DNA of 64,000 bases from Candidatus Multivoradales bacterium (lineage in GTDB: Bacteria > Acidobacteriota > Thermoanaerobaculia > Multivoradales > J023), in the NCBI GenBank assembly GCA_965248925.1, contig CBDFLE010000006.1, forward strand, positions 480,001 to 544,000, read 5' to 3'. Of this stretch, positions 4,297-57,187 are shown piece after piece. The position numbers and the translations under genes were made by a program. The first letter of the stretch is position 1. Each line of letters starts with the position of its first letter. The notes beneath the pieces are model-generated. The model did no database searches. It worked only from the letters and a program-made list of their open reading frames with translations, and was not told the DNA's origin.

Positions 4297-4831
4297 CTCC
4301 CAGTAGTCGGCCAGCCTTCAGAGCAGACCCCAAAACTACAAAGCTGTGGCGCCTCGGCAGGACACAGATGGCCTTGAATGCGGTGTCGAGGTCGCCACTC
4401 AGCTGACCACGGTTGAAAGCTGATCCCAGCGTAAACCGCTGATAACAAGCAGGTACGGGTTGGGTGGCACCTTCTCGGGCGGGTCTGTGTCGTGCATGGC
4501 CAAGCCTCCTGTTTTGAGTGACTTCGGCAGGCTGTTGCCCGTCCGGTGGTCTAGGAGTAAGGCGTGGCACGTCGGATGGTCAACCAGGATCGCGCGGAAA
4601 GCTGCGCGAAATCTTGGGATTCTTGGAAGTCCTCGGGATGGCCAACCGATAGCCGTGGGGAGTGGCTGAGTTGAGCCAACTGCAAGGCCAGCCAGAGGCC
4701 CCAGAATGCCCTCAGAGGGCCGATCTCCGGTCCTCGGCAGCACCACCGACTCGGCGAGATCATGCCTTGAAAGGCCAGTTCAAAGTCGGAGCCAAAGAGG
4801 GGCGGAAACGGTTGGGTGGTACCATCAGGCA

Positions 4832-7340: not shown

Positions 7341-7388
7341 TGGAGCCGATGAGCGGATTTGAACCGCTGACCTGCTGATTACGAATCA
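7341..7388 (-). repeat. att site: duplicated 3' 48 bp of tRNA-Thr(CGT)
   Basis: TGGAGCCGATGAGCGGATTTGAACCGCTGACCTGCTGATTACGAATCA is identical to 53696-53743. Confidence 0.97.
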
Positions 7389-7495
7389 CAGATTCGATGT
7401 TTCGTCACAGCACTACATGTCGCCTTAAGTGTTGCGATTCAAACAGTTAACTGGCATACTTCGTCTCATGGATTGCGACCAAATACCCCTGAGTT

Positions 7496-7525
7496 TGGTT
7501 ACTTCTGGTTACTCAGTGGTTACTT
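7496..7525 (+). promoter_or_regulatory. Putative integrase arm-type sites (3x TGGTTACT)
   Basis: TGGTTACT at 7496, 7506, 7517; the 20-mer TGGTTACTCAGTGGTTACTT recurs at 53628-53647. Confidence 0.75.
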
Positions 7526-7541
7526 GACGGAGAGGTCTGGC

Positions 7542-8705
7542 ATGAGGCTCACCAAGCGCGGGATCGACGCTGCTGACTACGAGGGCGGGACCGACTACCG
7601 CTGGGATGATGTTGTCTCTGGATTCGGGATGCGGCTCTACCCGAGTGGCAAGAAGGCTTTCGTGGTGGCCTATCGGGTGCTCGGTCGCAAGCGGATCATG
7701 GTGCTTGGTCGCTATGGAGTGCTGACGCTCGATCAGGCGAGAACGCGGGCGCGCAAGGTGCTGGCGCAAGCTTCCGAGGGTCTGGACCCGAGCAGAGACC
7801 GCCAGGCTCTCCTCAAGGCGCCAACGGTGGTCGATCTCGCCACCCGCTTCCTGGCCGATCATGGCCCGAAGAAGAAGGCGAGCAGCATCAGGAATGATCA
7901 GCGGATGTGGAAGCAGAACATTCTTCCCCGCCTTGGTCAGCGGAAGGTCGTCGATGTCACGCGGTCGGATATCGACCGTCTGCACTCTCAGATGCGGAAG
8001 ACCCCTTACGCCGCCAACCGGGTCCTCGCGCTCCTCTCCAAGGCTTTCAATCTCGCCGAGGTCTGGGGCTGGCGGCCAGCTCCCTCGAACCCCTGTCGTC
8101 ACGTCAAGCCGTACAAAGAAGAGAAGCGGGAGCGGTACCTCAGCCCGGCCGAGATCTCCCGGCTCGGTGTCGTTCTCGAAGAAGTCGAGCACGAGCGGGT
8201 CGAACTCCCCGGCGTGGCCACCGCCATCCGTCTCCTCCTCCTCACCGGCTGTCGTCTGAACGAGATCCTCTCGCTTCGGTGGCAGGATGTGGACTTCGAG
8301 AGTGGCTGCCTTCGTCTCGCCGACAGCAAGACCGGGAAGCGCCTGGTGCTTCTCAGTGGCGGAGCCCTGGAGCTGCTCGCGGCCACAGAGCGAGTCGAAG
8401 GGAACCCCTACGTCGTTCCGGGGAAACGAGAGGGCCAGCACCTGGTCAATCTCTCCAAGCCCTGGCGGCGTATCCGCGAGCGGGCTGGCTTCGACGATGT
8501 GAGGCTCCATGATCTGCGGCACACCTTCGGGAGCTTCGGCGCCGGCGCCGGCCTCTCTCTGCCGCTCATCGGCAAGATGCTCGGGCACAGCCAGCCGGCG
8601 ACCACGGCTCGATACGCTCACCTGGCGAACGATCCTCTTCGCCGGGCGGTGGAACTCGTTGGTTCTGAGATCTCCACGGCACTGACCGGCGACTTGCCGG
8701 AATAG
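7542..8705 (+). CDS. Tyrosine integrase (P4-like, N-terminal arm-binding domain)
   Basis: WDDVVSGFGMR arm-binding domain; TGCR, HDLRH, LGHS, TARY catalytic residues; next to att. Confidence 0.95.
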   Translation: MRLTKRGIDAADYEGGTDYRWDDVVSGFGMRLYPSGKKAFVVAYRVLGRKRIMVLGRYGVLTLDQARTRARKVLAQASEGLDPSRDRQALLKAPTVVDLATRFLADHGPKKKASSIRNDQRMWKQNILPRLGQRKVVDVTRSDIDRLHSQMRKTPYAANRVLALLSKAFNLAEVWGWRPAPSNPCRHVKPYKEEKRERYLSPAEISRLGVVLEEVEHERVELPGVATAIRLLLLTGCRLNEILSLRWQDVDFESGCLRLADSKTGKRLVLLSGGALELLAATERVEGNPYVVPGKREGQHLVNLSKPWRRIRERAGFDDVRLHDLRHTFGSFGAGAGLSLPLIGKMLGHSQPATTARYAHLANDPLRRAVELVGSEISTALTGDLPE

Positions 8706-19183: not shown

Positions 19184-19606
19184 GTGCGCGAGGACTACCG
19201 GTGGTATTTCTGTGCTGGGTGTCGAGCCTCGGTCGAGATCTGCTCGCACTGTGACCGGGGGCAGATTTACTGTGGCCAGGAGTGCTCCAGCGCCGCCCGC
19301 CGCGAGTCCTTGCGAGTTGCTGGTTGGCGCTACTGCCAGACCCCTCAAGGTCGCCGAAATCAGGCCGAGCGGCAGGCCCGATGGCGTCAGCGCCAGCAGG
19401 CCGAAGCGCAGAAAGTAACGCATCAGGGTACCCCACCCCCAGAGCCCCCAGTCATCCTCACTACGCCACCCCCGAGTGGGTCCAAGGACCGCCTTGCCCC
19501 GCTCGGCGAGCCGCGATGCTGCTTCTGTGGCGTTCTCTGCCGTCCATTCGTCCGTCTGGATCCCCTCAGACGACGACGGCGGCGCAAACGGAGAGATCGA
19601 AGATGA
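19184..19606 (+). CDS. IS21-internal Cys-rich accessory ORF
   Basis: CAGC, CSHC, CGQEC, CCFC; stop overlaps istA start. Confidence 0.7.
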   Translation: MREDYRWYFCAGCRASVEICSHCDRGQIYCGQECSSAARRESLRVAGWRYCQTPQGRRNQAERQARWRQRQQAEAQKVTHQGTPPPEPPVILTTPPPSGSKDRLAPLGEPRCCFCGVLCRPFVRLDPLRRRRRRKRRDRR

Positions 19607-21102: not shown

Positions 21103-21853
21103 AGATCTGCTCATCCGGGCCAAGAAGCTCGGGCTGCACGGTCTGGTCGAAGATTGGAGTCAACTTCAGAACCAGCCTTGGGTGCTGCCTTTGATCGACC
21201 GAGAGGAGATAGTGCGACACCAGAGGAGCCTCGAGAGGCGAATCCGCAACGCACACATCGGCACCTTCAAGCCGATGGCCGACTTCGACTACAAGTGGCC
21301 ACGAAAGATCGATCGCCTGATGGTGGAAGACCTCTTCAACTTCCAATGGCTCGAAGAAGGAGCCAACGTCATCCTCTTCGGTCCCAACGGCGTCGGCAAG
21401 TCGATGATCGTTCAGAATCTCACCTACCAGGCCTTGTTGCGTGGCGCCACCGGACGCATGCTCACCGCCAGCGAACTGCTCAACGACCTCGCGGCACAAG
21501 AGAGTTCCAGGGCTCTGCAGCGGCGCCTGGCCCTCTACACCCGGCCCGATCTGCTGGCCATTGACGAGCTAGGCTACCTGTCCTACGACCATCGCCACGC
21601 CGACCTCCTCTTCGAGGTGGTAAGCCGGAGGTATCAGAAGAAATCTATTCTGCTGACCACCAACAAACCCTTCTCCGAGTGGCAGAGCGTCTTCGCCTCG
21701 GCCACCTGCGTGGTCACCCTTGTCGATCGGCTCGTACATCACGCCGAGATCGTCACCATCGAAGGCGACTCCTATCGGCGCAAAGAAGCAGAAGAGGAAA
21801 AGAAACGGCGAGCACAAGACCGCGCGCGGCGGCGAAAGGCGAAGGTGTCATGA
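21089..21853 (+). CDS. istB: IS21 helper ATPase
   Basis: GPNGVGKS, LAIDELGY, DRLVHH, GDSYR. Confidence 0.95.
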   Translation: MTTTEDLLIRAKKLGLHGLVEDWSQLQNQPWVLPLIDREEIVRHQRSLERRIRNAHIGTFKPMADFDYKWPRKIDRLMVEDLFNFQWLEEGANVILFGPNGVGKSMIVQNLTYQALLRGATGRMLTASELLNDLAAQESSRALQRRLALYTRPDLLAIDELGYLSYDHRHADLLFEVVSRRYQKKSILLTTNKPFSEWQSVFASATCVVTLVDRLVHHAEIVTIEGDSYRRKEAEEEKKRRAQDRARRRKAKVS

Positions 21854-41139: not shown

Positions 41140-42714
41140 ATGCCGAGAGTGAGGACATCGATGCGCAAGATACGCGAGGTACTGAGACTGAAATGGCAGC
41201 ATGGCCTGTCGCACCGCCAGATCGGACGGTCGGTTCGGCTGGGCCACGGGACGGTGTGCAACTACCTGCTGCGAGCCAAGGTTGAAGGCCTGAGCTGGGA
41301 GCAAGTAGCAGCTTTGAGCGACGCTGAGCTGGAGCAACGCCTGTACCCTCGGCCGCAGCCGCTTCGGAGGGGTGGTCAGCGAGCCTTGCCCGACTGGACC
41401 AAGGTGCATGGCGAGCTGAAGAAGAAGGGCGTAACCCTGTCGCTGCTGTGGCAAGAGTACCGGGAGGACCATCCTGACGGCTACGGTTTCAGCCGCTTCT
41501 GTCAGCTGTACCGGATCTGGGAAGGGCGCCTGGATGTGTGCCTGCGCCAAGCCTACCGGGCGGGCGAGAAGCTGTTCGTCGACTATGCCGGACAGACCGT
41601 GAGGGTGATCGACCCGGCGACTGGCAAAGCGCGCGAAGCGCAGATCTTCGTGGCGGTGCTGGGGGCGAGCAACTACACCTATGCCGAATCAACGTGGAGC
41701 CAGGGCCTGGAGGACTGGATCGGCTCTCATGTGCGGACCTTCGCGGCTCTGGGCGGGGTGAGCGAGCTGGTGGTGCCGGACAATCTGAAGAGCGGCGTGA
41801 CCAGCCCGTGCCGCTACGAGCCGGAGATCAATCGCACCTACGCGGAGTTGGCCGAGCACTACGGCGTGGCGGTGGTGCCGGCGCGGGTGAGGAAGCCCCA
41901 AGACAAGGCGAAGGTCGAAAACGGTGTATTGCAAGTGGAGCGCTGGATTCTGGCCCGGCTGCGTAACCAGCAGTTCTTCAGCCTGCGAGAGCTCAACGAG
42001 AGCATCGCGAAGCTTCTGGTCGAGCTTAACGACCGTCCGCTGAAGGTGTTGGGCGTCTCGCGCCGAGCGCTGTTCGAGCAGGTCGATCGTCCTGCTCTGG
42101 GTGCTTTGCCGCTCCAGCCCTACGAGCTTGCCGAATGGAAGAAGGTACGCGTTGCCCCGGACTACCACGTCGAGTTCGAGGGCCACTATTACAGTGTGCC
42201 GTACCAGCTGATCAAGAAGCAGCTCGATCTGCGGGCGACGGCGCAACTGGTGGAGGTGCTCGATCGCGGCAAGCGTGTGGCTGCTCATCGTCGCAATCGG
42301 TGTCGGGGTCGGCACACGACCCAGAGCGAGCACATGCCCAAAGCGCACCAGGCGTACCTGGAGTGGACACCGACACGGCTGATCAGCTGGGCGGCGAAAA
42401 CAGGCCAGGCGACGGCCGAACTGGTGGAGACCATCATGCTTAACCGCTCCCATCCTCAGCACGGCTTTCGCTCGTGTCTGGGGCTGATGCGCCTGGGCAA
42501 GACCTATGGTGCCAATCGTTTGGAGGCTGCGTGCCGCCGCGCGCTCGCCATTCACGGCCTGTCCTACAAGAGCGTGAAGTCGATCCTGAAGAGCGGCCTG
42601 GACCAGCAAGCAGCGCCCGAGCCCACCGAAGTGACGGCGCCGATCGAGCACCACAACGTCCGCGGCGCCAGCTACTACAGTGCCGCGCGCCGCGAGGAGA
42701 CGCCGCCATGCTGA
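41140..42714 (+). CDS. istA: IS21 transposase
   Basis: GEKLFVDYAG, VPDNLKSGV, KAKVE. Confidence 0.95.
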   Translation: MPRVRTSMRKIREVLRLKWQHGLSHRQIGRSVRLGHGTVCNYLLRAKVEGLSWEQVAALSDAELEQRLYPRPQPLRRGGQRALPDWTKVHGELKKKGVTLSLLWQEYREDHPDGYGFSRFCQLYRIWEGRLDVCLRQAYRAGEKLFVDYAGQTVRVIDPATGKAREAQIFVAVLGASNYTYAESTWSQGLEDWIGSHVRTFAALGGVSELVVPDNLKSGVTSPCRYEPEINRTYAELAEHYGVAVVPARVRKPQDKAKVENGVLQVERWILARLRNQQFFSLRELNESIAKLLVELNDRPLKVLGVSRRALFEQVDRPALGALPLQPYELAEWKKVRVAPDYHVEFEGHYYSVPYQLIKKQLDLRATAQLVEVLDRGKRVAAHRRNRCRGRHTTQSEHMPKAHQAYLEWTPTRLISWAAKTGQATAELVETIMLNRSHPQHGFRSCLGLMRLGKTYGANRLEAACRRALAIHGLSYKSVKSILKSGLDQQAAPEPTEVTAPIEHHNVRGASYYSAARREETPPC

Positions 42715-43472
42715 GGCACGCGACGCTCGATCAACTCGCCGCGCTCAAGCTCCACGGTATGGCCAAAGCCTTTGAGGAGCAGCTGTCGATGGTCGATGTC
42801 TCAGAGCTCTCCTTCGAAGAGCGCCTCGGGCTGCTGGTCGAGCGCGAAGCGACCGAGCGATCCAGCCGCCGCTTGATAGCGCGGTTGCGAAAAGCCAAGC
42901 TGCGCGAGCAGGCGGCCATCGAAGACATCGACTGGCGAGCCAAGAGGGGCCTGGACAAAGGCCAGATCCTGCGCCTGGCCTCGTGCCAGTGGATCGCCGA
43001 GCATCTCAACGTGCTGATCACCGGCAAGGCCGGGGTGGGCAAGACCTTTCTCGCCTGCGCCTTCGCGCACAAGGCATGTCGGGAGGGTTACACCGCTTTG
43101 TACCTGCGGGTGCCGAGGCTGTTTCGCCAGCTCGCCATCGCGCGGGGTGATGGTAGCTACGAGAAGCTGCTCAAGAGCTATGCTCGCACAGACCTGCTCA
43201 TCCTCGACGACTGGGGGCTGGCGCCGATCGGGGCCAGCGAGCGGCGCGACCTGCTCGAGATTCTTGAGGACCGCTACGGCAACCGCTCCACGCTGGTGAC
43301 CTCCCAGCTACCGGTTGAGAGCTGGTACGAGGTCATCGGCGATCCGACCTTGGCCGACGCCATCCTCGATCGCATTGTCCACGGCGCCTACAAGCTCGCG
43401 GTGGACGGTGACTCCATGCGGGCGAAGAGAGCCGGCGGTATTCGCAAGGCCGCCCAGCGAGAGGCAAGGTGA
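42708..43472 (+). CDS. istB: IS21 helper ATPase
   Basis: GKAGVGKT, LILDDWG, DAILDR, GDSMR. Confidence 0.95.
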   Translation: MLRHATLDQLAALKLHGMAKAFEEQLSMVDVSELSFEERLGLLVEREATERSSRRLIARLRKAKLREQAAIEDIDWRAKRGLDKGQILRLASCQWIAEHLNVLITGKAGVGKTFLACAFAHKACREGYTALYLRVPRLFRQLAIARGDGSYEKLLKSYARTDLLILDDWGLAPIGASERRDLLEILEDRYGNRSTLVTSQLPVESWYEVIGDPTLADAILDRIVHGAYKLAVDGDSMRAKRAGGIRKAAQREAR

Positions 43473-44134: not shown

Positions 44135-44235
44135 GGGGGTCGTGGGGGCAGCGCCCCTACGCAAGATAGGACGCTCTGCGGACGGTGCAATTGGGCGGAC
44201 GAGCTGTGCTCGGCTGCCCAATTGCAATCTTGCCC
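44135..44235. other. Putative oriT
   Basis: Upstream of mobC/relaxase; hairpin CGTGGGGGC..GCCCCTACG next to GCAAGATAG (CTATCTTGC on minus, like MOBP TATCCTG^C), hairpin TGCAATTGGGC..GCCCAATTGCA, second ATCTTGC. Confidence 0.6.
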
Positions 44236-44388
44236 CTGCTTTGCGGGGCCACTGCTCAGTGCTCATTTGCGATTGGGCTGCGCTGCTATGCACGTGCAGT
44301 CCTTGCGCTGTACACTTTCGCTGGCCAGAAGCCGGCAAAGCAGCAGCTATCATTCGAGGCAATCATTCGCTGTCGAGAAGGACGGGCC

Positions 44389-47300
44389 ATGACACCGGAT
44401 TTCACCTACGACGTTTTCTTGAGTCACAGCTCTCAGGACAAGCTCGCCGTGCGCGCTCTGGCAGAGCGATTGCGAGAGGACAGAATAAGAGTCTGGTTCG
44501 ATGAGTGGAAGATTGGCCCCGGCGACAGTATTCCAGCGAAGATCGAAGCAGGACTGGAGCAGTCGCGTGTGCTCGTGCTTTGCATGTCGGACAGTGCGTT
44601 CGGCTCTGACTGGGCGCAGCTAGAGGCCGGCACGTTCCGCTTTCGCGATCCACTGAACAGCGATCGCCGCTTCATCCCGTTGCGGCTCGACGATGCTCCC
44701 ATCAGAGGCTCCCTCGCTCAATTTCTCTACATCGACTGGCGGATTGAGGATCATGAGCAAGCCTACCTCGGATTGCTCAAGGCCTGTCGGGAGACCGAGC
44801 CAGGAAGTGCAACCGACATGCAGGATGAGAAATGGTGGTCGCGCGCGAAGCCACAGGATGTCGCCGCTCATGGGCCATCGAGGGATGACTTCCCTAAGAA
44901 GACCAAAGACACCCTTTCCCGAAGAGTAGGAATGAGGTGCTCCAATCCAGACTGCCGACAAACGACAAGCGGCCCACAATCCGATCCCGACAAAGCCATC
45001 AATATAGGTGTTGCCGCCCACATCACCGCTGCTTCGTCAGGCGGGCCGCGATATGACGGATCGCTTTCAAAGGTAGAGCGTTCTTCGATCCAGAATGGCC
45101 TCTGGCTCTGCCAGAACTGCGCGAAATTGGTGGATAGCGACGTAGGACGATTCACCGTCGAGTTGCTCCAAGAATGGAAGAAGAATGGGGAGAGGTCGGC
45201 TCAACGAGCGTTGGAGACCAGTGCGAGCATTGCTAGCGATATTGGCGATGCCGCCACCGACCGAAAGACGAGTGCTGCGAAAAGGAAGATCGACAAGGCG
45301 CAGGAGCTAGCTCGTTCAGGAAAACTCAGCGAAGCAATAGCGGAGGCTCTTGAGTCCCTCGAGATTGCGCGGAACGAGAACGACGAAGAGCAAGAGGTGG
45401 AAACCTTGCTCGCCTTAGCGCTGCTCTCGTCGGATCGACAAGGGATCGGAGACAGACTTCACTATTTTCAAGAAGCTGAGAAGAAAGTCGACAAGATCAA
45501 GGCACCTGCGGCTAAGGCTATCTACTTGCGCGCGAAGGCAGCAGTTCTGGGTGAGCAAGGCGACACCTCAGGAGCCGAGGCGCTCTACAAAGAGGCGCTC
45601 GACATCTGTTCGAGGGAGGAGGACGACGAGAAAAGAAATCTTGCGACTCAAGCGTGCATCTTGCGGTCAGACTATGTCCATCTCCTTTGCGGTGAGAAGA
45701 GATATGAGGAGGCGGAAGCAGTTCTAAGGGCGTGTGAAGATTATGCGCGCGACAACCGCGATGCTAGGAACACAGAACTCCTTGGGGCGGCGCTGGAGGC
45801 CGGGATACATCTGTACCTCGATACTAAGGACAAGGAAGGAGCCGTGGCCCGAATCGAAGAACTTGAAGCTGCGGCCACCACGATAAGGCTAGCGGATCGT
45901 ATCGGCGGCGAGCTCCTCAATATCGCGAATCACGCGGCCCACAGAAAGATGTATGGCGCTGCCCTTCGCGCGGCAGAAGCGAGCATACGGTTGGGTCACC
46001 GCTGTGATGATGGCAAGTCGCCGGGCTTCCTGATCGGAGCGTTGTATACCGAGGCAATGATCTTGGCGAAATCTGGTGATGAGATGGCGCTAACCAAGGC
46101 CCAAGCAGTACTGAGCGCCTGTTGTAGGCCAGAGGATCAGGCCGTCAGACAAGCGGCCAGCCAGCTGATCGCGGAGATACGACGGACAGCTGGCGATTCA
46201 GAGTCGGCAGTTGATCTCGCGCGCGGGGCCTTAGCGTTGGCCACAGGAGGGCCAGAGAACATCGCTTTCTCGAAGTCTGCGCTGGCCCGAGCGCTGAATG
46301 ACAACGGCCAAACTGAGGAGGCGTTCAATGAGGCGAGCGAGGCGTGGGCGCTACTTGAGCAAGCTAGTATTCCGCCTAAAACGGCACTGGATGTTCTGGC
46401 TCAGGTAACCAACTATGGATCGCAGATCGGCAACGACGCTGGTGTTCGGAGCGCACTCGACACGATCGCTGTGTTACCAGACGAGGAGGGGGAACTCGAG
46501 GAGGAGAAGACCCGTGTCGTCGCGCGGGCGGATGCTAACCGTCAGATTAGAGAGAGGATTCTGGAGATATCAACGCCGTCGAGTTCAGAAGATGGCCCGA
46601 ATATCGAGGCAGGTGTAGCCACTCTCCAGGACGCGAACGCGAGAGTTGTCGAGCAGTTAATCGGCCTTTGGGATGAAGTACCGGAAGCCGCCGGAGGAAT
46701 CTATGACTTCTGGGGTCGGGGCAATTTTGTGCGCCTGCTCGAGAATGCTCGGCGTTACCCAACTAGTTTTAATGTAACAGTCGAGGTGCGCAGTTTAGAG
46801 GACGTGAAACGAGCGATTCGCCTGTGGGGCCTCTACGCTGATTTTCTTCTGCTTCTCTGGAAGGGCGAGTCTCAGAGTGGGCTGGCCATCGTGCCCTTTC
46901 CGCGAGATTTCAAGGGGCCCGGAGGCTGGGGCTACATTGTGGCTATGGGCGACGAAATGAAGGTCGAAGGCTCATCGAAAATATGGCATGGCGCGTTGGC
47001 GCAGATTTCAAGTATCCCGGACGATGTAGCTGCATTTCTTGCAACTGAAGCCCGGCGGTTTGTGGAGACGGGTCGCCTGATTGTCGTGTCGGCTCCAGCT
47101 GTAGGTTGCACCAACCCAGGTCACGGACCGTTTGAGCAGCTGCTCGCTGAGAGTGCAAACGCGATCCCAAGCGTACGCTGGAAGGGCTTTGAAGGTGAGC
47201 CGATTGGTCTTGTGCCGTACTCCCCGAACGCACCGTTGGAACTGCTAGCTGAGCTGACAGAGATCGAGGATGACCGGCTAAGGAAGCTGAGACTTCTTCT

Positions 47301-47709
47301 CGTTGAGCGGAGCAGACAGCTAGTGCCTGGCAATGAAGTGAAGGCCGGTGCAAGAATATTAGCTCTGGAGATTGACGACGCATTGCGTGACCTGACTGAT
47401 AGGACGGATGCCTTCTCTCGTAGGAAGGGACTGGAAAGAGCAGCCGAGCCACTGTGCGCTGGAATCGCCCGCTTTAGACGTGAGGGACTGGCACTGTCTG
47501 ACGAGGCTTCTCACTCCCCATTTGCACCGCTGTTCGTACTCCAGAGCTTAGGATACGGGTGGCGAGTTGACAGCGGGGCGATACCGAAGCCCCCAGGGCG
47601 TTTCCAGCCAGAGTCCGGTGACATCGTTGGGACATGGTTGGCTCCACCAACAGCGGGCTGGACGGTACCTATCATGCGCGCTGTCGATGCCGATGATAGG
47701 GAGACTTGA
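44389..47709 (+). CDS. TIR + HNH-like + TPR + unknown C-terminal domain protein (candidate defence)
   Basis: YDVFLSHS..WFDEW..SDWAQLE (TIR with catalytic Glu); CSNPDC..AAHITAAS.GGPRY..NGLWLCQNCAKLVD; helical repeats. Confidence 0.88.
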   Translation: MTPDFTYDVFLSHSSQDKLAVRALAERLREDRIRVWFDEWKIGPGDSIPAKIEAGLEQSRVLVLCMSDSAFGSDWAQLEAGTFRFRDPLNSDRRFIPLRLDDAPIRGSLAQFLYIDWRIEDHEQAYLGLLKACRETEPGSATDMQDEKWWSRAKPQDVAAHGPSRDDFPKKTKDTLSRRVGMRCSNPDCRQTTSGPQSDPDKAINIGVAAHITAASSGGPRYDGSLSKVERSSIQNGLWLCQNCAKLVDSDVGRFTVELLQEWKKNGERSAQRALETSASIASDIGDAATDRKTSAAKRKIDKAQELARSGKLSEAIAEALESLEIARNENDEEQEVETLLALALLSSDRQGIGDRLHYFQEAEKKVDKIKAPAAKAIYLRAKAAVLGEQGDTSGAEALYKEALDICSREEDDEKRNLATQACILRSDYVHLLCGEKRYEEAEAVLRACEDYARDNRDARNTELLGAALEAGIHLYLDTKDKEGAVARIEELEAAATTIRLADRIGGELLNIANHAAHRKMYGAALRAAEASIRLGHRCDDGKSPGFLIGALYTEAMILAKSGDEMALTKAQAVLSACCRPEDQAVRQAASQLIAEIRRTAGDSESAVDLARGALALATGGPENIAFSKSALARALNDNGQTEEAFNEASEAWALLEQASIPPKTALDVLAQVTNYGSQIGNDAGVRSALDTIAVLPDEEGELEEEKTRVVARADANRQIRERILEISTPSSSEDGPNIEAGVATLQDANARVVEQLIGLWDEVPEAAGGIYDFWGRGNFVRLLENARRYPTSFNVTVEVRSLEDVKRAIRLWGLYADFLLLLWKGESQSGLAIVPFPRDFKGPGGWGYIVAMGDEMKVEGSSKIWHGALAQISSIPDDVAAFLATEARRFVETGRLIVVSAPAVGCTNPGHGPFEQLLAESANAIPSVRWKGFEGEPIGLVPYSPNAPLELLAELTEIEDDRLRKLRLLLVERSRQLVPGNEVKAGARILALEIDDALRDLTDRTDAFSRRKGLERAAEPLCAGIARFRREGLALSDEASHSPFAPLFVLQSLGYGWRVDSGAIPKPPGRFQPESGDIVGTWLAPPTAGWTVPIMRAVDADDRET

Positions 47710-47887
47710 GGGGCGGACAGCGAGTCCTTCTGGAGCGTGTCGAGCCTGGACTCTTCTCTAGCTGGGCGGCGGACGAAGGCTCGATAGTTCAATCTCTGGC
47801 TTCAGGGCTGCCCCTTTTCATGGCGGGTCATTCGACCGGCCGCCGCAGGAGCCCAAAATAGGGAGGTGACTTTCATCCCTACTATCC

Positions 47888-49018
47888 ATGACCTCCGCAT
47901 CACGCCCACGTCTCATCGCCGAGAACCTCACCCAGATCCGCCAAAACACCAACTGGCGCCAGTTCTTCGAAGCCCTGAAGCTCCCCAGAGACCCCAAGAA
48001 ATCCAAAGACCACGACTGGTGGGCCAAGAGCCCCTTTCGACCTGACGAGCGTACTGCCTCGTTCCATATGAACGCTCGCGGCTGGTATTGCCACGCTACA
48101 AGCCAGGGCGGCGGCCCCATCGAATTGGTGCAGCGTCTCCATCCGGGAATGCACTGTTTCGATGCTGGCCGATGGCTTCTGGAGCATGGCGTCAGCCGCG
48201 TTGTATCGGATGTTCGGGAAGATCTTCATCTTCTCGAAGGCGCAGATACCGTTCAGTCCGAGAAGGAGCCCTCGAACGAGCCAGTCCGGCAGGATCTCCG
48301 GAGCCAGCTCTCCGCGAACCACCGGCTCTGCGCCGCTCGGGGCGTCCCTTCCGAGATCTACCGAGAATTGGGTGCTGGCTTCCTGGATCGGCCAATTCGG
48401 AAGAATGGGAGACCCGATCCACTGAACCACCGAATCGTGTTCCAGATCCGGGGACTCAAGGAGAACGAGACCGGAGAGCTTCATGCCGTTGTCCTCGGTC
48501 ATATGGGCCGAGCGACAACAGAAGACCAGGCCGACCGGGATGGCAAATGGTGGACGTATGCAGGATTCAAGAAAAGTCTGGAGCTGTACAACCTCGACCA
48601 CGCGATCCTTGACGATGAGGCCGTTGACCAAGCCAAGGGTACCGAGCATCTTCTCGTCGTGGAGGGACTGTTCGATGTCGCCAGGCTCTACGCCGCCGGC
48701 ATTCGCAACGTGGTCGCTACTTTCGGCGCCAGCCTCAGCACAGCTCAGCTCAGGCGACTCGATCTCATCAGCGAGATGGTCGGTGTCAACCGGTTCATCA
48801 TCTTCTACGATCGAGACCGGGCTGGACACAAGGGTGCCAAGAAGGCTCTTGAGGCGATTACGGCTTCGGGGCTCGGCATTCAGGCTGAAGTCTTCGATTG
48901 GAACCGCGTCTGGGAATCGACCGTCCGAGGTGATGTCGGCATTCCCGCATCGATCACCGATCCCGCCGAGTTCTCCCTCGGGCAGCTTCAATGGCTCCGT
49001 CATGAGGGGATCCTGTAA
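47888..49018 (+). CDS. DnaG-like TOPRIM primase with degenerate Zn-binding domain
   Basis: SPFRPDERTASF..WYCHA; VVEGLFD, YDRDRAG. Confidence 0.85.
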   Translation: MTSASRPRLIAENLTQIRQNTNWRQFFEALKLPRDPKKSKDHDWWAKSPFRPDERTASFHMNARGWYCHATSQGGGPIELVQRLHPGMHCFDAGRWLLEHGVSRVVSDVREDLHLLEGADTVQSEKEPSNEPVRQDLRSQLSANHRLCAARGVPSEIYRELGAGFLDRPIRKNGRPDPLNHRIVFQIRGLKENETGELHAVVLGHMGRATTEDQADRDGKWWTYAGFKKSLELYNLDHAILDDEAVDQAKGTEHLLVVEGLFDVARLYAAGIRNVVATFGASLSTAQLRRLDLISEMVGVNRFIIFYDRDRAGHKGAKKALEAITASGLGIQAEVFDWNRVWESTVRGDVGIPASITDPAEFSLGQLQWLRHEGIL

Positions 49019-49030
49019 CCGTCCTCGCCC

Positions 49031-49918
49031 ATGAAGATCTCCAGCTTCCACCGGGAGTTCAAGCATTACGCGCTTCTAGGGAAAGGCATGACCAACGGCG
49101 TCTACCGCTCAATCGGCTACACCCTTCGGATGCTGTGTCGATATGCGGCGACTGAAGAAATCGGCTCGTTGACGCCGGACATGATTCGCGCTTTTCTCTA
49201 CTACGGACGAAGCGAGCGCGGCTGGGCGGCAAAGACCTACCGAAATCACTGGCAGTACCTCAAGATCTTCTTCGACTTCTGTCAGCGGCAAGGCTACGTC
49301 CGCTCCAATCCCGTCGAAGGAATCGAGAAGCCGAAGCTCCCGGAGCGACTCCCACGTTGCCTTTCTCACGAAGACTCCTTGAAAGTCCTGGCATACTCGT
49401 ACGGCTACGATTGGCGGTACCACCTTGAAGCTGCACGGAATCACGCGATCATCGCGACTCTGATGATGACCGGCCTCCGGCTGCAAGAGCTTCTGAATCT
49501 CGAAGTCCACGATCTCGACCTGTCGGGGTGCGGGATTCTCGTGAGGCGAGGGAAGGGCCGCAAGGATCGGCTCGTTCCTGTTTACCACAAACTTCTGCCC
49601 ATCCTTCGTAACTTCCTGGAAGCGAAGCGCCAGTCTGGGAAAATCTCTCGCTGGCTGTTCACGGGCGTCAAGTCTGACAAGCAGCTCGCGCAAAAGGACG
49701 TTCGTCGGATCTGCCAAAGAATCTCCGTCGCCTGCGGTGTCAAGTTCACTCCTCATGTTCTCCGGCACACCCTCGGCCGCGAGCTGGTAGACAACGGCGT
49801 CGATATCAAGACGGTGCAGCGAATCTTTGGTCACGCTCAGGTGACCACCACCGAGATCTACACTCATCTTTCTACGCGAGCGTTCAATGGGAATTTTCAA
49901 AGGGCGAGAATCTTTTGA
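49031..49918 (+). CDS. XerC/D-like tyrosine recombinase 1
   Basis: TGLR, GKGRKDR, HVLRH, FGHA, TEIY. Confidence 0.93.
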   Translation: MKISSFHREFKHYALLGKGMTNGVYRSIGYTLRMLCRYAATEEIGSLTPDMIRAFLYYGRSERGWAAKTYRNHWQYLKIFFDFCQRQGYVRSNPVEGIEKPKLPERLPRCLSHEDSLKVLAYSYGYDWRYHLEAARNHAIIATLMMTGLRLQELLNLEVHDLDLSGCGILVRRGKGRKDRLVPVYHKLLPILRNFLEAKRQSGKISRWLFTGVKSDKQLAQKDVRRICQRISVACGVKFTPHVLRHTLGRELVDNGVDIKTVQRIFGHAQVTTTEIYTHLSTRAFNGNFQRARIF

Positions 49919-50049
49919 CAGATCGCGAGGAAATCTCTACGGTGTGGATACCTGCCTTCAGGTCGCTGAACATCGGAAGCCCATCTTTGGGTCACCCATC
50001 GGAATGCCGCATAGGAACTTGCATTACGGGACTTGAAAGCCACTGAGCT

Positions 50050-50096
50050 GGCTCATAACCCGAAGGTCGCAGGTTCGAGTCCTGCCCCCGCAACCA
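50050..50096 (+). other. Orphan 3' half of initiator tRNA-Met(CAT), attP-like
   Basis: GGCTCATAACCCGAAGGTCGCAGGTTCGAGTCCTGCCCCCGCAACCA; no D-arm or 5' acceptor strand upstream. Confidence 0.85.
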
Positions 50097-50185
50097 ATAT
50101 CCGCTACAGGAGCGGACTCCGAAGAATCGACAGTCCGACAAAGAAGGTTCAGCGACCACAGGGCAGAGCCCTATGGTCACTGGCT

Positions 50186-51112
50186 ATGTCTGAAATTGAA
50201 CAACTCCATCGGCAATTCTGCGAGTTCTCGCTGACCTTCAAAGCGAATACTCCACGGACGATCAAGTGGCTCCGCGCCACGTTCGCCGATTTTCTGCGCG
50301 GGACTGAGTTGACCAGCGCGACGCAGCTCGACCGAAGAACAATCGAGAACTGGATCGTCCGCAAGAAGCTGGAGAACAGCTGGTCCGCGAAATCGGTGCG
50401 GAACAATCTCCAAGCCTTGAGCCTCTTCTGCGACTGGCTGGTTCGGGAGGAGTATCTGGTCGAGAATCCGACATCCCAAATCCCGAAACCCAAGCTGCCA
50501 CATACAATCCGTCCGCATCTGACGGTAGAGACAGCCCAGGATCTTCTCGACTGGACGCGGAACTTCCCGTTTGGGTATGCCTTCGAGCGAGCGCGAGCCA
50601 CGGCCATTCTCTCCACCTTCCTCCACACCGGCATTCGCCTGGAAGAGCTGAGAAACCTCCACTGCGTCCATGTCGACCTCGAAAACCGCTCCCTATTCGT
50701 GGAGAAGGGAAAATGCCAGAAGGATCGAATCGTTCCGTTCGGCCTACCGCTAGTGGAGGCGCTTCAGGAGTACTTGCGCCATAGAACCAGATTGAAGAAG
50801 AGCTGCCCCTATTTCTTTGCGGCGATGCGGCAAGACAGCCAGATGGGAGACTCGGTGATCAAGCGGCTCGTTTCCAGGCTGCGCGACAAGAGCGGGATCT
50901 ACTTCTATCCACACATGCTGAGGCACACCTACGCCACATTGATGTTGCAGGGCGGGGCCGACATCAGGGCGGTGCAAGAACTGTTGGGCCACGCCTCGAT
51001 CCTTTCGACACTGCCGTACCTGCATACGACGACGGCGCATCTCCAGGCGCAGATCCAAAAGTATCCGCTCAATGTAGATTGGCAGGGGCCTCACGGCATC
51101 AAGGGCCTCTGA
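50186..51112 (+). CDS. XerC/D-like tyrosine recombinase 2
   Basis: TGIR, GKCQKDR, HMLRH, LGHA, TLPY. Confidence 0.93.
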   Translation: MSEIEQLHRQFCEFSLTFKANTPRTIKWLRATFADFLRGTELTSATQLDRRTIENWIVRKKLENSWSAKSVRNNLQALSLFCDWLVREEYLVENPTSQIPKPKLPHTIRPHLTVETAQDLLDWTRNFPFGYAFERARATAILSTFLHTGIRLEELRNLHCVHVDLENRSLFVEKGKCQKDRIVPFGLPLVEALQEYLRHRTRLKKSCPYFFAAMRQDSQMGDSVIKRLVSRLRDKSGIYFYPHMLRHTYATLMLQGGADIRAVQELLGHASILSTLPYLHTTTAHLQAQIQKYPLNVDWQGPHGIKGL

Positions 51113-51161
51113 ATGAATGAAATCTCAGACTTCGCCGGTTCGCCTCTGGCCAGACAGCCAG

Positions 51162-51992
51162 CTAGCGGTCGACTTTCAAACGAGCGCGGAGTTCGGCGAG
51201 GTTCTCCTCGATGTGGCTCGGGATAGGCACTTGCCGGTTAAGGGTTTCACGAAGAACCTGATACTTCTCATGCCATTGCCGGAAGTCCCGAAGTTCTTCT
51301 TTAAGCGAAAAGGCAAGAGCCTCGACGCAGGTGACGGCAACCATGGTGTACAAGTTGCAGAGGTTTCGAAGCACCTCTTCGTCGAGAGGACCACCGAATC
51401 TTCCCGCGAAGGCAAGCCCTCTGCCTATCTGCCCGCCATCCTGAAAGCTAGTGAACGCTGACGTCACCGGGAGGACGCTAGCATGCCCAAGAGGAGCCGT
51501 AATCAACCATGCCGTCCTGAGTCTTTGGAAAAGTTCACTCGGTATTGAGTCGAGTCTCCGTAGAACCGAACCCCCGGTGCCCTGTCGTGAATTCCAGACC
51601 TTCTGAAAGTCTGCCGGTGAGTGGACGCTGAAAACTTGGAAGATCGAGGCTTCTGCGGCCCCTCGCGAAAGCGTTAGGCTCACACGCGGATGAGCAATAA
51701 CGCTGCTGAACCAGCCCCATAAGAGATGATCGGCGGCGAAGCAGGCGAGGGCGACAGAGAGTCTGGGTGTCTCCGAAAAGTCCTGGCCGGAGAGAACATT
51801 GAGCCCACCAAGGTGAAGCTCGAACGCGGGTTTCAGTACAACGGCTTCAAGCTCGCGTACGATCTCTTTCGATTCAGGATGGGCATTGGCCGTGATCCAT
51901 TGATTGTAGGTCTTCTCGGCACTCTCAAATGCCTCAGCCTCCGTGAGCGTGGGGGCAACCTCCTCGCGAGAGGGCAGTTTCTGATGAGTCAT
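51162..51992 (-). CDS. Hypothetical helical protein, possibly HEPN/DUF5677-like
   Basis: LSRGAAE and AWLITAPLGH resemble the RxxxE ... Yxx(L)SxxxH pattern (tentative). Confidence 0.65.
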   Translation of the reverse strand: MTHQKLPSREEVAPTLTEAEAFESAEKTYNQWITANAHPESKEIVRELEAVVLKPAFELHLGGLNVLSGQDFSETPRLSVALACFAADHLLWGWFSSVIAHPRVSLTLSRGAAEASIFQVFSVHSPADFQKVWNSRQGTGGSVLRRLDSIPSELFQRLRTAWLITAPLGHASVLPVTSAFTSFQDGGQIGRGLAFAGRFGGPLDEEVLRNLCNLYTMVAVTCVEALAFSLKEELRDFRQWHEKYQVLRETLNRQVPIPSHIEENLAELRARLKVDR

Positions 51993-52051
51993 TGTCTTGC
52001 CTCAGAATTCGCGTAAGCGCCTTTGTAGTATGTTTGTTGTCGCGGCGTATT

Positions 52052-53377
52052 CTACTGGGCCGAGGACTTGACGAACAGGAAGCCGACTCCACAAGAGGGT
52101 GGGGACAACCAGTGGAAATGACCATCCTCCAGTGAATCCGGAGCAGTCTTCCTTCGTTGGAGTTTGTGTCGACGAAGAGGCATTCGACGACGCCGAAACG
52201 GCTTTCTCCGCCCCAAATCCCAAAGCAAGTACAAGGGATTCCGGCGAAGCTCCAGGCCGCTGTCAGAGGCCTGTCGAAGACACTCGCAAAGTCCTGCCGC
52301 GGCAACTCCTCCGGCAGCCGCCACGAGAGCTGTCCCAACTGCTCCAGTTGCTCCAGCCGCACTTCCTAGCGCGGCTGCGGTGGTGCCAACAATGCCTCCC
52401 AGCCCCGTTACTGTTGCTCTGAACCGACGAGCCCGATCTGAAAGAGCCAGCTCCGAGACCTCGTAGTTGAGTTCCGAAACAAATTCCTCTAAGCGGTCAT
52501 GAGGAGAGGCCTCAGCAAGTCGGCGAAACGCGACTCGTAGGCGTTCAAGTTCAACAGGGGAATCCGCCATCATGCTGTCGAACTCTGCGGGTGCCATCCC
52601 GTCCAACACCGGAAGATCAAGTGATAGCAGCTTTTCCTCGGTTTGACTCAGCATCGCGCTATCCCGGAGAGGGAGCGCTCCCACAAGATTCTCGAAGCCA
52701 GTGCGAACATCGTCGGCGGCGGACGACAGTCCAATCAGCTCTTCCGGCGCAACAAAGACATCACCGCGTGAGAACGCGAGTGGTCCTTCTTCGACGATCC
52801 AATCCCCGACGACTTCTGGTAGCAAGCGAGCGTAGCCAAAGATCTCAGACCAGAGTCGACCGCGCATCTTTATCTCGTTGGTGATCGCTAAGTATCCCCA
52901 CCCAGCATCCCAGAGGCTGTCGGGTTCGCCCGGATGGAGATGCGACACTCGCACTGGTCTACTGAGTGCTCCTCGCCATAGGAATTCAATTGGAACCCCA
53001 AGCAACGCTAGTCGGCGATATGTCCAACGCATCTCGTCGACGAATTGAACTGAGACTTGGAGTGGACGGACTGCGTTTAGGTTGTTGTGGATCAGCCGCC
53101 GCGCATAGTTTCCGCGAGCCCAGAAGTCCAAAGACGCCGAGCGGCCCCTAGCTGACTTCATCCAATCCAGCAGCAGATCGTATTTCGGCGCTGGTGGTTT
53201 ACCAGAGGGGTAAGACGAGAGATCGAATGGCGTCGCTGGGTACGCATATAGCTCCGCCGAGCGGGGGTCTTTACCATCGATCGTGATCCTAGCTTTCGGT
53301 TCCAATTTGGCAGGATCCCTTTCCTGATGTCGTGGTCTCTGACCTTGGTTGCGTCGACTTTGGCAATCAGATTGCAC
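52052..53377 (-). CDS. Hypothetical protein homologous to the C-terminal domain of the TIR protein
   Basis: Colinear DFWxRGN, LWxG, GWGY, PLxxLxxLG, WLxPP motifs; start uncertain. Confidence 0.75.
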   Translation of the reverse strand: MQSDCQSRRNQGQRPRHQERDPAKLEPKARITIDGKDPRSAELYAYPATPFDLSSYPSGKPPAPKYDLLLDWMKSARGRSASLDFWARGNYARRLIHNNLNAVRPLQVSVQFVDEMRWTYRRLALLGVPIEFLWRGALSRPVRVSHLHPGEPDSLWDAGWGYLAITNEIKMRGRLWSEIFGYARLLPEVVGDWIVEEGPLAFSRGDVFVAPEELIGLSSAADDVRTGFENLVGALPLRDSAMLSQTEEKLLSLDLPVLDGMAPAEFDSMMADSPVELERLRVAFRRLAEASPHDRLEEFVSELNYEVSELALSDRARRFRATVTGLGGIVGTTAAALGSAAGATGAVGTALVAAAGGVAAAGLCECLRQASDSGLELRRNPLYLLWDLGRRKPFRRRRMPLRRHKLQRRKTAPDSLEDGHFHWLSPPSCGVGFLFVKSSAQ

Positions 53378-53480: not shown

Positions 53481-53695
53481 CATAGCCCTCCACGACTCAT
53501 GGATTGCCCACTCGTCCGAGGAATCGGTGCGACCGATTCCGGCGCGATGGTCACCAGGAAGAAGGTCTTTGCGGCAGCCTTGAGGTCCGACCAAGTTCGT
53601 CAAAGCGCCACAGATTACTCTCTACGGTGGTTACTCAGTGGTTACTTTGTCGATCGCGGCGAGAGGGGGAATCTGTCGTAAGTTATTGAATCTAA

Positions 53696-53770
53696 TGGAG
53701 CCGATGAGCGGATTTGAACCGCTGACCTGCTGATTACGAATCAGCTGCTCTACCCCTGAGCTACATCGGC
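53696..53770 (-). tRNA. tRNA-Thr(CGT)
   Basis: GCCGATGTAGCTCAGGGGTAGAGCAGCTGATTCGTAATCAGCAGGTCAGCGGTTCAAATCCGCTCATCGGCTCCA; cloverleaf, encoded CCA. Confidence 0.97.
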
Positions 53771-55987: not shown

Positions 55988-57187
55988 TCAAGAAACCAGC
56001 TGTCCAAGACCCGGCAGGTCTAGCTGGAAATGCTCCGGTGCTGTGTTCTCTGGTGGTGTCCCGAACGGTTCATCGAGCCAATCGCGCAAGTCCCGATAAG
56101 TGAAGAGGTTCAGTCGTAGCATCGATGCAAGATTCGAGAATGACCACCCCGCCTTGGAGAGGAAGTGAAGCCAGCGGAGCAGCAGCAGCGCGATCAAGGC
56201 TGTCCAGATCTGGATCCGCAGGGCATTCTCACTGGTCCCGACGAAGGTCTTGACCTTCAGGTTCTGCTTCAGCGTCTTGAAGAAAAGTTCGATCTGCCAG
56301 CGGTCTCGATAGATCGCGGAGATCGTCGTGGCTCCGAACGTCAGATGATTGGTCAGCAAAACGATCTCTCGCTTCTTCTCAGCATCCCAGACTACGACAC
56401 GGCGCAGCAGATAAGGACAGGCCTTGCGCGCCTTCGGCGTCTCGAACTCGATGATTTGGTCGGAAAGGATCGAGCGATTCTGCGGCACCTCCCGGATCTC
56501 GACGATAGAGTAGGCGGTAGCCTCCTTCATGCGGGTAACGAAGAAGACCCCCTGCTCGGTCCAATCGGCAAAGAGCCGAAAGTCGTTGTAGGCAGGGTCC
56601 ATTGCAACGATGGAGCCCGGGTTGAGCTGCAGCCCTCGGGCGCTGCGCACGTCGGCCTGCCTGGCGTCGGTCAGTAGCGCGTAGGAAGGCATGTAGTCGC
56701 CGTGGTCGAGCAGCACATGGAGCTTGACGCCGCCTTTGGAGCGGCGGAAATCGGCCCAAGGAAACAGTGCGAGGCACAGCGAGATGGTCGTGGAGTCGAG
56801 TGAGAGAAGCTTGTTCTTGAACCGGAACTTCTGCTGGCCGAGCGTGCCCAGGGAGCCCTGCCCACGGAAACGCTGGAGGGCGGACCAGAAGAGACTCTCG
56901 AAAAGAGCAGCGGGTCGATGCTGGTTGGCGTAGGAGAGGGTGGATTTATTGGGAGCCTTGTCGATGCCAAGGTGGGCAAGCTTGCCCACGCAGCAGGCAA
57001 GGCCGTTGCAGATCTCGCGCAGAGAGTCGGCGCGAGCGGTCTGGCAGAAAAGCATGGCGACGAACTGAGACCAACAGGTGAAGCCCTTGGCGGAGCGCTC
57101 AGCCTGATGATCACGGACCAAGGCGGCGAACTCGAGGCGTGGGAAGTGTTGAAGCAGTTGACTGAAGAGGCTGGCGCTGCGTACCAT
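55988..57187 (-). CDS. IS4-family DDE transposase
   Basis: DSTTISL, KLHVLLD, MDPAY, YRDRWQIELFFKTLKQ. Confidence 0.95.
   Translation of the reverse strand: MVRSASLFSQLLQHFPRLEFAALVRDHQAERSAKGFTCWSQFVAMLFCQTARADSLREICNGLACCVGKLAHLGIDKAPNKSTLSYANQHRPAALFESLFWSALQRFRGQGSLGTLGQQKFRFKNKLLSLDSTTISLCLALFPWADFRRSKGGVKLHVLLDHGDYMPSYALLTDARQADVRSARGLQLNPGSIVAMDPAYNDFRLFADWTEQGVFFVTRMKEATAYSIVEIREVPQNRSILSDQIIEFETPKARKACPYLLRRVVVWDAEKKREIVLLTNHLTFGATTISAIYRDRWQIELFFKTLKQNLKVKTFVGTSENALRIQIWTALIALLLLRWLHFLSKAGWSFSNLASMLRLNLFTYRDLRDWLDEPFGTPPENTAPEHFQLDLPGLGQLVS

Follow-up and report, generated by a model that had tools for sequence, protein, structure and literature searches.

What is the 3' half of an initiator tRNA doing between two recombinase genes, inside an island that is itself inserted in a different tRNA gene? 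The question is raised by a 64-kb stretch of a Candidatus Multivoradales bacterium (assembly of 7.98 Mb, 62% G+C; contig CBDFLE010000006.1, here C6, positions 480001-544000), hereafter the window. In it, a primase-like gene, a tyrosine recombinase gene (rec1), a tRNA-fMet 3' half and a second tyrosine recombinase gene (rec2) follow one another, all four co-oriented on the plus strand according to the list of open reading frames (ORFs) and direct alignment (Table 1). A first-pass annotation, made from the letters alone, had read this run as the circular-junction form of a separate tRNA-fMet-targeting element nested within another island. The analysis presented here favors a modified account, to which we assign a probability of roughly 0.68: the half is the intact, unrecombined core of the attachment site (attP) of a second integration module, this module is carried by a conjugative island anchored in tRNA-Thr, and the site has never been used here.

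The half begins with the last two bases of the 5' strand of the anticodon stem and continues through the CAT loop, the variable region, the T arm and the acceptor strand to ACCA. It ends 89 nt 5' of the rec2 start codon, which places a tRNA 3' part directly beside an integrase gene. An Rfam search at E<=1 over 49700-50400 returned no match, half a tRNA being too little for the model, and the tRNA identity of the half therefore rests on direct alignment: it is identical at 43 of 47 positions to positions 31-77 of the host initiator tRNA, and at 44 of 46 to the tRNA-fMet of a Peribacteria locus (L005) that carries a rec2 relative. The host has only one initiator tRNA gene, located on the minus strand at C6:3054153-3054229, 2.5 Mb away and inverted relative to the half, and no recombinase-like genes were found within 25 kb of it. 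ARAGORN reports a single tRNA in the window, the tRNA-Thr(CGT) of Table 1, and three CAT tRNAs in the whole genome, all more than 2 Mb from the window. Neither a second copy of the half nor a stray 5' half exists in the assembly. The earlier observation that the window holds the half without a full tRNA-Met or second copy is thus confirmed, genome-wide in the case of the copy, and the full tRNA-Met just outside the window that would have made the site a simple insertion junction is not there.

An island inserted in a tRNA gene usually leaves a half tRNA as the scar at its far end, and the inner junction of a tandem array would likewise show an element end, a half and an integrase gene in that order. 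To distinguish a displaced end or inner junction of this kind from an attP, three unrecombined loci (the window; L083, a metagenome contig bearing a tRNA-fMet half; and L277, from genome G685) were compared with two insertion junctions (L004 and L005). The three unrecombined loci have a common layout: counted from the rec2 start, the palindrome occupies about -45 to -10, preceded by the core (about -135 to -90) and, farther out, by an upstream site (about -225 to -240). Neither junction has this upstream site; host flank is found in its stead. Both attP arms are present in the window by this comparison of three loci with two, and the intact upstream arm argues for an attP rather than an insertion junction or scar, in line with the circular-junction form first proposed. 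In addition, neither the island nor the 2 Mb around it contains a complete tRNA-fMet or a second half, the module is enclosed by an island whose bounding repeats are of tRNA-Thr, and the same orphan layout is found in G685. It is therefore very unlikely that the half is a mere remnant of a tRNA-fMet insertion, and we regard this explanation as largely refuted.

Both arms of the palindrome, and the upstream site as well, are similar to the GGTCGC stretch that immediately follows the anticodon stem in the half. A clear palindrome, at about -35 to -45, precedes the start codon in six of nine scanned loci (the window, L083, L007, L005, L262 and L003), and also in L277; L004 has the left arm only, and L006 and L014 have merely a weak 9-10-nt stem of different sequence. 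A motif built from the upstream site and the left arm matches only those two places in the 64 kb, which is a partly circular test, and the shared position of the site in the three loci is the stronger argument. Constraint on the site can be read from protein P0003 (46,180-bp record), a rec2 homologue at 89% identity whose annotated N-terminal extension is a translation of the upstream region. When this extension is compared with the translation of the window, 17 of 17 residues are identical in the half and 9 of 9 in the palindrome, while 8 of 19 differ in the spacer. The residues ahead of the P0003 half differ from the translation of a complete tRNA, indicating that this record also carries a half. 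The start of rec2 itself is most likely ATG 50186 and not the listed TTG-50033, because family members begin at the equivalent Met and the TTG-50033 frame runs through the tRNA half.

The behavior of rec2 relatives at tRNA genes points toward the same conclusion. At E<=1e-30 the family has 72 member proteins. From a scan covering one genome per species, 80 loci were kept, of which the best 41 (L003-L043) were used and L044-L082 were dropped as generic Xer-like matches (E>=1e-29); 36 of the 41 have at least 150 nt upstream, and T arms were detected in them with a self-made pattern. A complete co-oriented tRNA lies within 330 nt upstream in 14 of these 36 loci, 10 have a tRNA 3' part only (T arm and acceptor strand, no complete tRNA), and 12 have neither. 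L004 and L005, the closest loci with context (46-49% identity), are directly behind complete initiator tRNAs, contrary to the possibility that homologues are never found beside tRNA-Met. Direct repeats of tRNA-Lys, 43 nt long in L022 and 37 nt in L028, close these two loci, and the family thus includes inserted relatives in which the gene adjoins a complete tRNA and the far end carries a direct repeat. At L007, L024, L025, L030, L033 and L038, the half was not found a second time within 8 kb. Judged by these sequence associations, the rec2 family is one of tRNA-site integrases that occur both inserted and unrecombined. In 400 other genomes of the phylum rec2 has no match at E<=1e-40 (0/400), the best match in a scan of viral contigs is at 33%, and all plasmid tblastn matches are below 60% (the best among the matches listed at ~30-34%), so that neither of the latter two scans yielded a close relative. 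One member, L022 (6488-8440), looks to be a 1.9-kb mini-element at tRNA-Lys, within its 43-nt direct repeat, that holds a rec2-like gene alone.

Both recombinases are, as first described, catalytically complete. Phage_integrase (PF00589) matches rec1 at E 1e-33 and rec2 at 8e-33, placing both in the tyrosine recombinase superfamily, and the catalytic sets (R150 K175 H242 R245 H268 Y277 in rec1; R151 K176 H243 R246 H269 Y278 in rec2) are invariant in 30-sequence family alignments. Their N-terminal domains are Phage_int_SAM_4, SAM_5 and SAM_1, with no Arm-DNA-bind match, as in the simple Xer-like type. Aligned to each other without gaps over 290 aa, the two proteins show 31% identity. In NCBIfam the XerC, XerA and XerD models match them best, with scores about half of the cutoffs: the pair scores 172.4 and 177.1 against a cutoff of 335 for the XerC/XerD equivalog TIGR02224, 162.4 and 154.7 against 330 for TIGR02225, and 97.8 and 77.3 against 265 for the integron integrase TIGR02249, which puts both outside the XerC/XerD dimer-resolvase and the integron integrase classes. 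The primase stop codon is 12 nt ahead of rec1. The primase scores 84.6 bits against a cutoff of 283.6 for TIGR01391 and the CHC2 zinc finger (PF01807) is undetected, so it falls outside the DnaG type and is better described as primase-like than as a housekeeping DnaG.

Does rec1 belong with rec2? At E<=1e-30 the rec1 family contains 101 proteins, a number that includes unrelated XerC-like tails; about 70 are at least 38% identical, and most of these are exactly 295 aa long. A metagenome scan with the rec1 alignment was dominated by generic recombinases, and L083 was the sole true family member of 80 kept loci. Record sharing between match lists can be deduced indirectly, from equal record sizes: the rec1 and rec2 lists have nine in common (46180, 26911, 79642, 2305, 236374, 14778, 27383, 247593 and 8884), and so do the primase and rec1 lists (46180, 15988, 11907, 247593, 29680, 110585, 6851, 5886 and 4424). 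In a quick tree search (67 rows, with support from the Shimodaira-Hasegawa-like approximate likelihood ratio test (SH-aLRT) only), all rec1- and rec2-type proteins are separate from three host Xer-like genes. Clade R2 (support 96) is made up of R2a (support 100), with rec2 of the window, L004, L005 and L083, and R2b, with tRNA-Thr, -Lys and -Val types; clade R1 (support 96) holds rec1 of the window and its convergent counterparts, and clade RU (support 100) the partners of R2b. In this quick tree R2a co-occurs with R1, and R2b with RU. Two catalytically complete paralogues therefore co-occur across lineages, the pattern looked for in a heteromeric system.

The gene order of the window can also be related to an inserted form. 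A co-oriented recombinase is found no more than 1.5 kb upstream in 5 of the 10 half-only loci (L024, L025, L030, L033 and L038), as against 1 of the 14 full-tRNA loci (L019). In L028 (Saccharibacteria), the rec2-like gene is behind the complete tRNA-Lys, the co-oriented RU partner ends 181 nt before the far-end half, and housekeeping genes lie beyond both element ends; circularization of this 7.6-kb element would yield partner, attP and integrase in the order of the window. As for homologues at opposite ends of elements in tRNA-Met, the rec2 relatives of L004 and L005 adjoin tRNA-fMet, and opposite ends are seen directly only in the distant, tRNA-Lys-inserted L028. At another rec1-bearing locus, G403:C60, there is no tRNA half upstream of rec1. 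The cargo of L028 (7796-15452) is a defence-like pair, a UvrD-like helicase and an AAA_15/AAA_21 ATPase. Separately, the host genome holds runs of near-identical Xer-like paralogues, 28-30% identical to rec1 and spaced ~8-12 kb apart, at C5:923-976 kb, with seven copies, and at C6:3.50-3.52 Mb, which suggests a repeated element array.

If the tRNA-fMet site has not been used, how is the island held in the chromosome? Exact 48-bp tRNA-Thr repeats bound an island of 46.4 kb. Entry by way of a tRNA-Thr integrase, as earlier supposed, is borne out by these repeats and by a P4-type tyrosine integrase, except that this gene is located at the far end and not beside the tRNA. The ORF that does adjoin tRNA-Thr (52052-53377) has no integrase family match in three libraries, leaving the far-end gene as the tRNA-Thr integrase. 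A 20-bp exact repeat flanking the tRNA-Thr core is likely to be an arm-type site of this enzyme, and the real start of the integrase is probably downstream of the listed TTG. The island also encodes a TraG-type coupling protein, a VirB4-like ATPase match and two relaxase-family genes, and it thereby combines the tRNA direct repeats, integrase and transfer genes of an integrative and conjugative element (ICE) or integrative and mobilizable element (IME). Further cargo consists of a DNA methylase, an extracytoplasmic function (ECF) sigma factor, a Ser/Thr kinase-TPR protein and a 1400-aa FG-GAP protein. From 43.7 to 53.6 kb the G+C content is an even 55-60%, under the genome mean.

The primase led to a second island of the same kind. 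In a class-level sample it has one match in 400 other genomes at E<=1e-60, in G685, which belongs to the same taxonomic order. The G685 island is syntenic; tRNA-Phe and a 115-bp repeat (91% identity) mark its limits. Homologues of the TraG and relaxase region are followed by the primase (59%), directly by rec1 (42%), by an AAA_13 ATPase gene on the opposite strand, by an orphan tRNA half, the palindrome and rec2 (42%), and then by two unknown ORFs and the P4-type integrase (58%) at the island end. The G685 half is, by our reading, Pro-like. A similar arrangement occurs in Bacteroidota, where in L024, L025 and L038 a type IV coupling protein (T4CP)-like gene, ArdC or RadC, and a Dam methylase precede an RU recombinase gene, behind which come an orphan tRNA half, a rec2-like gene, three small ORFs and finally a large serine recombinase. 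Directly next to this last gene, in L024 and L025, lies a truncated comM. When the L024 half was used to query its own genome for a matching tRNA-Lys only the self-match was returned. The synteny with G685 speaks against a separate element nested in another island; the module looks like conserved island backbone instead. Across two phyla, conjugative-type elements that are anchored by one integrase appear to keep a two-recombinase tRNA attP, unrecombined, beside that integrase.

In the explanation we favor, rec2 would be the tRNA-site integrase and rec1 its conserved partner recombinase. Rec2 would bind a predicted GGTCRC-type motif at four places, namely in the upstream site, within the half just beyond the anticodon stem and in each palindrome arm, and, with or without rec1, would carry out strand exchange with a tRNA-fMet gene in the anticodon loop. 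The half contributed by the element would then complete the 5' half of the host to give a working initiator tRNA, and rec1 and rec2 would become separated. By our reading of the sequences, the hybrid tRNA would keep three anticodon-stem G-C pairs and the acceptor strand, with one U-G wobble against the 5' strand of the host. Because the island relies on a P4-type integrase of its own for anchoring, in tRNA-Thr, the tRNA-fMet site stays an attP. Since the spare site and the host tRNA-fMet are inverted and 2.5 Mb apart, recombination between them would invert the intervening segment and split the island in two. We hypothesize that the module may still be active, may provide the island with a second target and may employ rec1 and rec2 together; for dual specificity and heteromeric action, the one argument is the co-occurrence of the two recombinase clades.

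Several observations weigh against this account, or against parts of it. The half differs from the host tRNA-fMet at 4 of 47 positions, one of which adjoins the anticodon loop. The exact half is absent from 400 other sampled genomes of the phylum, two of which match it with 2 mismatches, and in G685 no other copy of the half was found within 3 mismatches, in an assembly of ~400 contigs from which the tRNA gene could be missing. No promoter-like sites were found in 47600-51300. The island carries two IS21 copies and an IS4-like transposase, an insertion sequence (IS) load compatible with decay, and it is the P4-type integrase that does the anchoring in the window and G685 islands alike. The opposite-strand AAA_13 gene between G685 rec1 and the site means that co-transcription across attP is not general, and a single operon spanning attP was dropped as a general rule on this ground. 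The recombinases flank the site in the window, as first described, but rec1 is downstream of rec2 and convergent in five close relatives (L007, L029, L083, G401:C127 and L005, the last with a 1.5-kb gene between the two), so that the flanking arrangement is not fixed in this subfamily. The rec2-like gene that is alone in L022 argues against an obligate pair.

The mismatches to the host tRNA-fMet, the unmatched half of G685, the anchoring by a P4-type integrase in both genomes and the IS elements could all be accommodated if the module were an inert inheritance from a tRNA-fMet-using ancestor and the island moved by its P4-type integrase only. We consider this unlikely, given that the window and G685, whose proteins are only 42% identical, each have two intact genes encoding every catalytic residue, that the half and palindrome are invariant while the spacer between them varies, and that the unrecombined layout recurs in the three Bacteroidota elements.

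Do the recombinases and their site instead serve to resolve multimers or to maintain an excised, replicating island, the likeness to a tRNA being ancestry only? Xer-like enzymes without an arm-binding domain would suit such a role, as would the link of the primase to rec1, the constant presence of another integrase that already anchors the element beside the module, and the inverted arms on either side of the site, which are able to base-pair when the DNA is single-stranded (z = -2.86). This role is nevertheless decidedly improbable. Relatives are inserted at tRNA genes with direct repeats, a resolution-type arrangement was found in none of the relatives examined, and the half is conserved as a whole through the T arm, acceptor strand and CCA, which is needed only where a working tRNA must be rebuilt. 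The favored account, an unrecombined attP carried as part of a second integration module, can be extended, quite tentatively, to a class of two-recombinase tRNA modules across several phyla, in which a tRNA-site integrase has a partner clade of its own and which conjugative elements would keep unrecombined beside the primary integrase as a second anchor. Such elements might choose between two targets and encode an XerC/XerD-like heterotetramer whose genes are separable by integration.

The module combines features of several known systems. In islands and prophages that target tRNA genes by means of P4-like and related tyrosine integrases, attP begins at the anticodon loop. Like these, the window has an attP that runs from the anticodon loop to CCA with the integrase gene adjoining, and relatives behind complete tRNAs with a far-end repeat; unlike them, it has short Xer-like enzymes without an arm-binding domain, a second paralogous recombinase, extra sites that resemble the core-type site, and an attP that is unrecombined in an island anchored elsewhere. 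XerC and XerD are two paralogous short tyrosine recombinases that act at one site, dif, and mobile elements exploit the Xer system. Rec1 and rec2 are likewise a catalytically complete short pair at one site with XerC, XerA and XerD as best models, but they are below the equivalog cutoffs, are encoded by the element, have a tRNA half in place of a dif-like 28-mer and form clades apart from the host Xer-like genes. TnpA and TnpB of Tn554 and the staphylococcal CcrA and CcrB are related, element-encoded recombinases that are both needed for site-specific insertion; an element-encoded pair is common to these systems and the window, whereas families and targets differ, and joint action of rec1 and rec2 is a hypothesis. 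The integron attI has extra IntI-binding repeats upstream. The window resembles it in having a Xer-like recombinase without an arm domain and core-like motif copies upstream, and differs in its integron integrase score (97.8 against 265), the lack of cassettes and a core that is a tRNA half.

NBU1 of Bacteroides, which targets a tRNA gene, pairs the integrase IntN1 with a primase homologue, PrmN1. In tycheposons, which are also tRNA-targeting elements, a primase gene accompanies the integrase (bioRxiv 10.1101/2020.12.28.424599). A primase gene accompanies the tRNA-site integrase in the window as well; NBU1 and tycheposons differ from it in having a single integrase and in that their halves are scars or array junctions rather than an unused attP within another island. 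The tripartite ICE3 of Mesorhizobium has several tyrosine integrases (IntS, IntG and IntM), each with its own attP, one at a tRNA gene; all three sites are recombined at rest, and each integrase has its own directionality factor (PMC5882170). The window island is similar, a conjugative element with several tyrosine integrases of which one targets a tRNA, and different, in that its second site is unused and flanked by two recombinases and that no directionality factor was recognized. The inversion and splitting predicted above for the window island would resemble dispersal steps of tripartite ICEs (PMC5882170). No description of this layout was found in the literature on two tyrosine recombinases at a tRNA attP, main texts being the scope of that search. 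Multi-integrase islands and tRNA attP sites are already known; what we found nowhere described is an attP with its integrase and a partner from a clade of its own, unused in an island anchored elsewhere.

Mobile islands are usually described with one integrase and one target. The window island keeps, unused, what appears to be a complete second docking system, composed of a site, a tRNA-site integrase, a partner recombinase and, in many cases, a primase. Two islands that have different tRNAs as their anchor show the unused layout, as do three elements of Bacteroidota, of which two can be shown to be anchored in comM. A functional spare system would open more hosts and sites to an island and would also account for how multi-part islands originate. 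The module is, besides, a clean natural case in which to ask if Xer-like pairs encoded by an element act as heteromers, and for annotation it implies that a half tRNA beside a recombinase gene is not always an insertion scar.

Table 1. Features of the module, its site and the surrounding island (window coordinates unless a locus is named; a dot marks features without strand).
Feature	Position	Strand	Basis or remark
DnaG-like (Toprim) primase, 376 aa	47888..49018	+	Toprim_4 E 1e-13; phrog_47 E 5e-35
rec1, Xer-like tyrosine recombinase, 295 aa, clade R1	49031..49918	+	Phage_integrase and SAM-like N-domain
Upstream (P-arm) site, inverted copy of palindrome left arm	49953..49970	-	Same position in L083 and G685
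3' half of initiator tRNA-fMet, 47 nt, read as attP core	50050..50096	+	Direct alignment
Palindrome, 15-nt arms with 2 mismatches, 3-nt spacer, ends 4 nt before rec2 start	50148..50182	.	Left arm 50148-50165
rec2, Xer-like tyrosine recombinase, 308 aa, clade R2a (members adjoin tRNA-fMet)	50186..51112	+	Phage_integrase and SAM-like N-domain
tRNA-Thr(CGT), its 3' 48 nt (53696-53743) being the near-end attachment site	53696..53770	-	ARAGORN and repeat search
Displaced tRNA-Thr 3' half, far-end attachment site	7341..7388	-	Exact 48-bp direct repeat of 53696-53743
P4-type tyrosine integrase of outer island	7473..8705	+	Arm-DNA-bind_3, Phage_int_SAM_3, Phage_integrase
20-bp exact repeat flanking tRNA-Thr core	7506..7525	.	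Partner 53628-53647
TIR-TPR protein, 1174 aa, defence-like cargo directly 5' of module	44185..47709	+	TIR_2 E 3e-26, TPR_12; absent from G685
Two ORFs, 276 aa (51162-51992) and 441 aa (52052-53377), variable cargo	51162..53377	-	Between rec2 and tRNA-Thr junction
Three-recombinase runs of Bacteroidota	L024 5629-13576; L025 6593-12859; L038 6348-13084		

Defence-like cargo adjoins the module in both islands, as the TIR-TPR gene in the window and as the AAA_13 ATPase gene (L277 11550-13832) between rec1 and the site in G685. On the other side of the module, the 276-aa and 441-aa ORFs have no Pfam, NCBIfam or PHROG matches and no G685 counterpart, and a 114-aa plus-strand ORF at 51117-51461 overlaps the 276-aa minus-strand ORF. 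The IS21-type pairs (transposase and IstB) inside the island are at 19282-21853 and 41140-43472 and the IS4-like DUF4372 transposase is at 11520-12677; a second DUF4372 transposase lies just beyond the island (55988-57187). In a phylum sample, the primase has one match in 400 genomes at E<=1e-50, in G353, at 41% and within a 957-aa frame. Four copies of this frame, whose N-terminal part is the portion 41% identical to the primase, are found on C4, C5 and C6 of G353 (L268-L271), and the frame is probably the primase-helicase of a repeated element.

Two loci of the recombinase families show further repeats. In L083, three tandem 75-nt units from the 5' end of tRNA-Lys(CTT) are located at 3081-3245, 700 nt from the tRNA-fMet half. 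L262 (G401:C127) has a 149-bp inverted repeat of 97% identity at 1179-1327 and 4627-4775, which corresponds to a tRNA-fMet 5' half with its upstream flank. Between the two copies lie a rec2-like gene, a rec1-like gene and a 294-aa ORF. One of the copies belongs to a complete tRNA; the other stops in the anticodon loop and enters the rec2 leader without a 3' half. An inversion, a second tRNA locus or an artefact of the metagenome-assembled genome (MAG) could account for the repeat.

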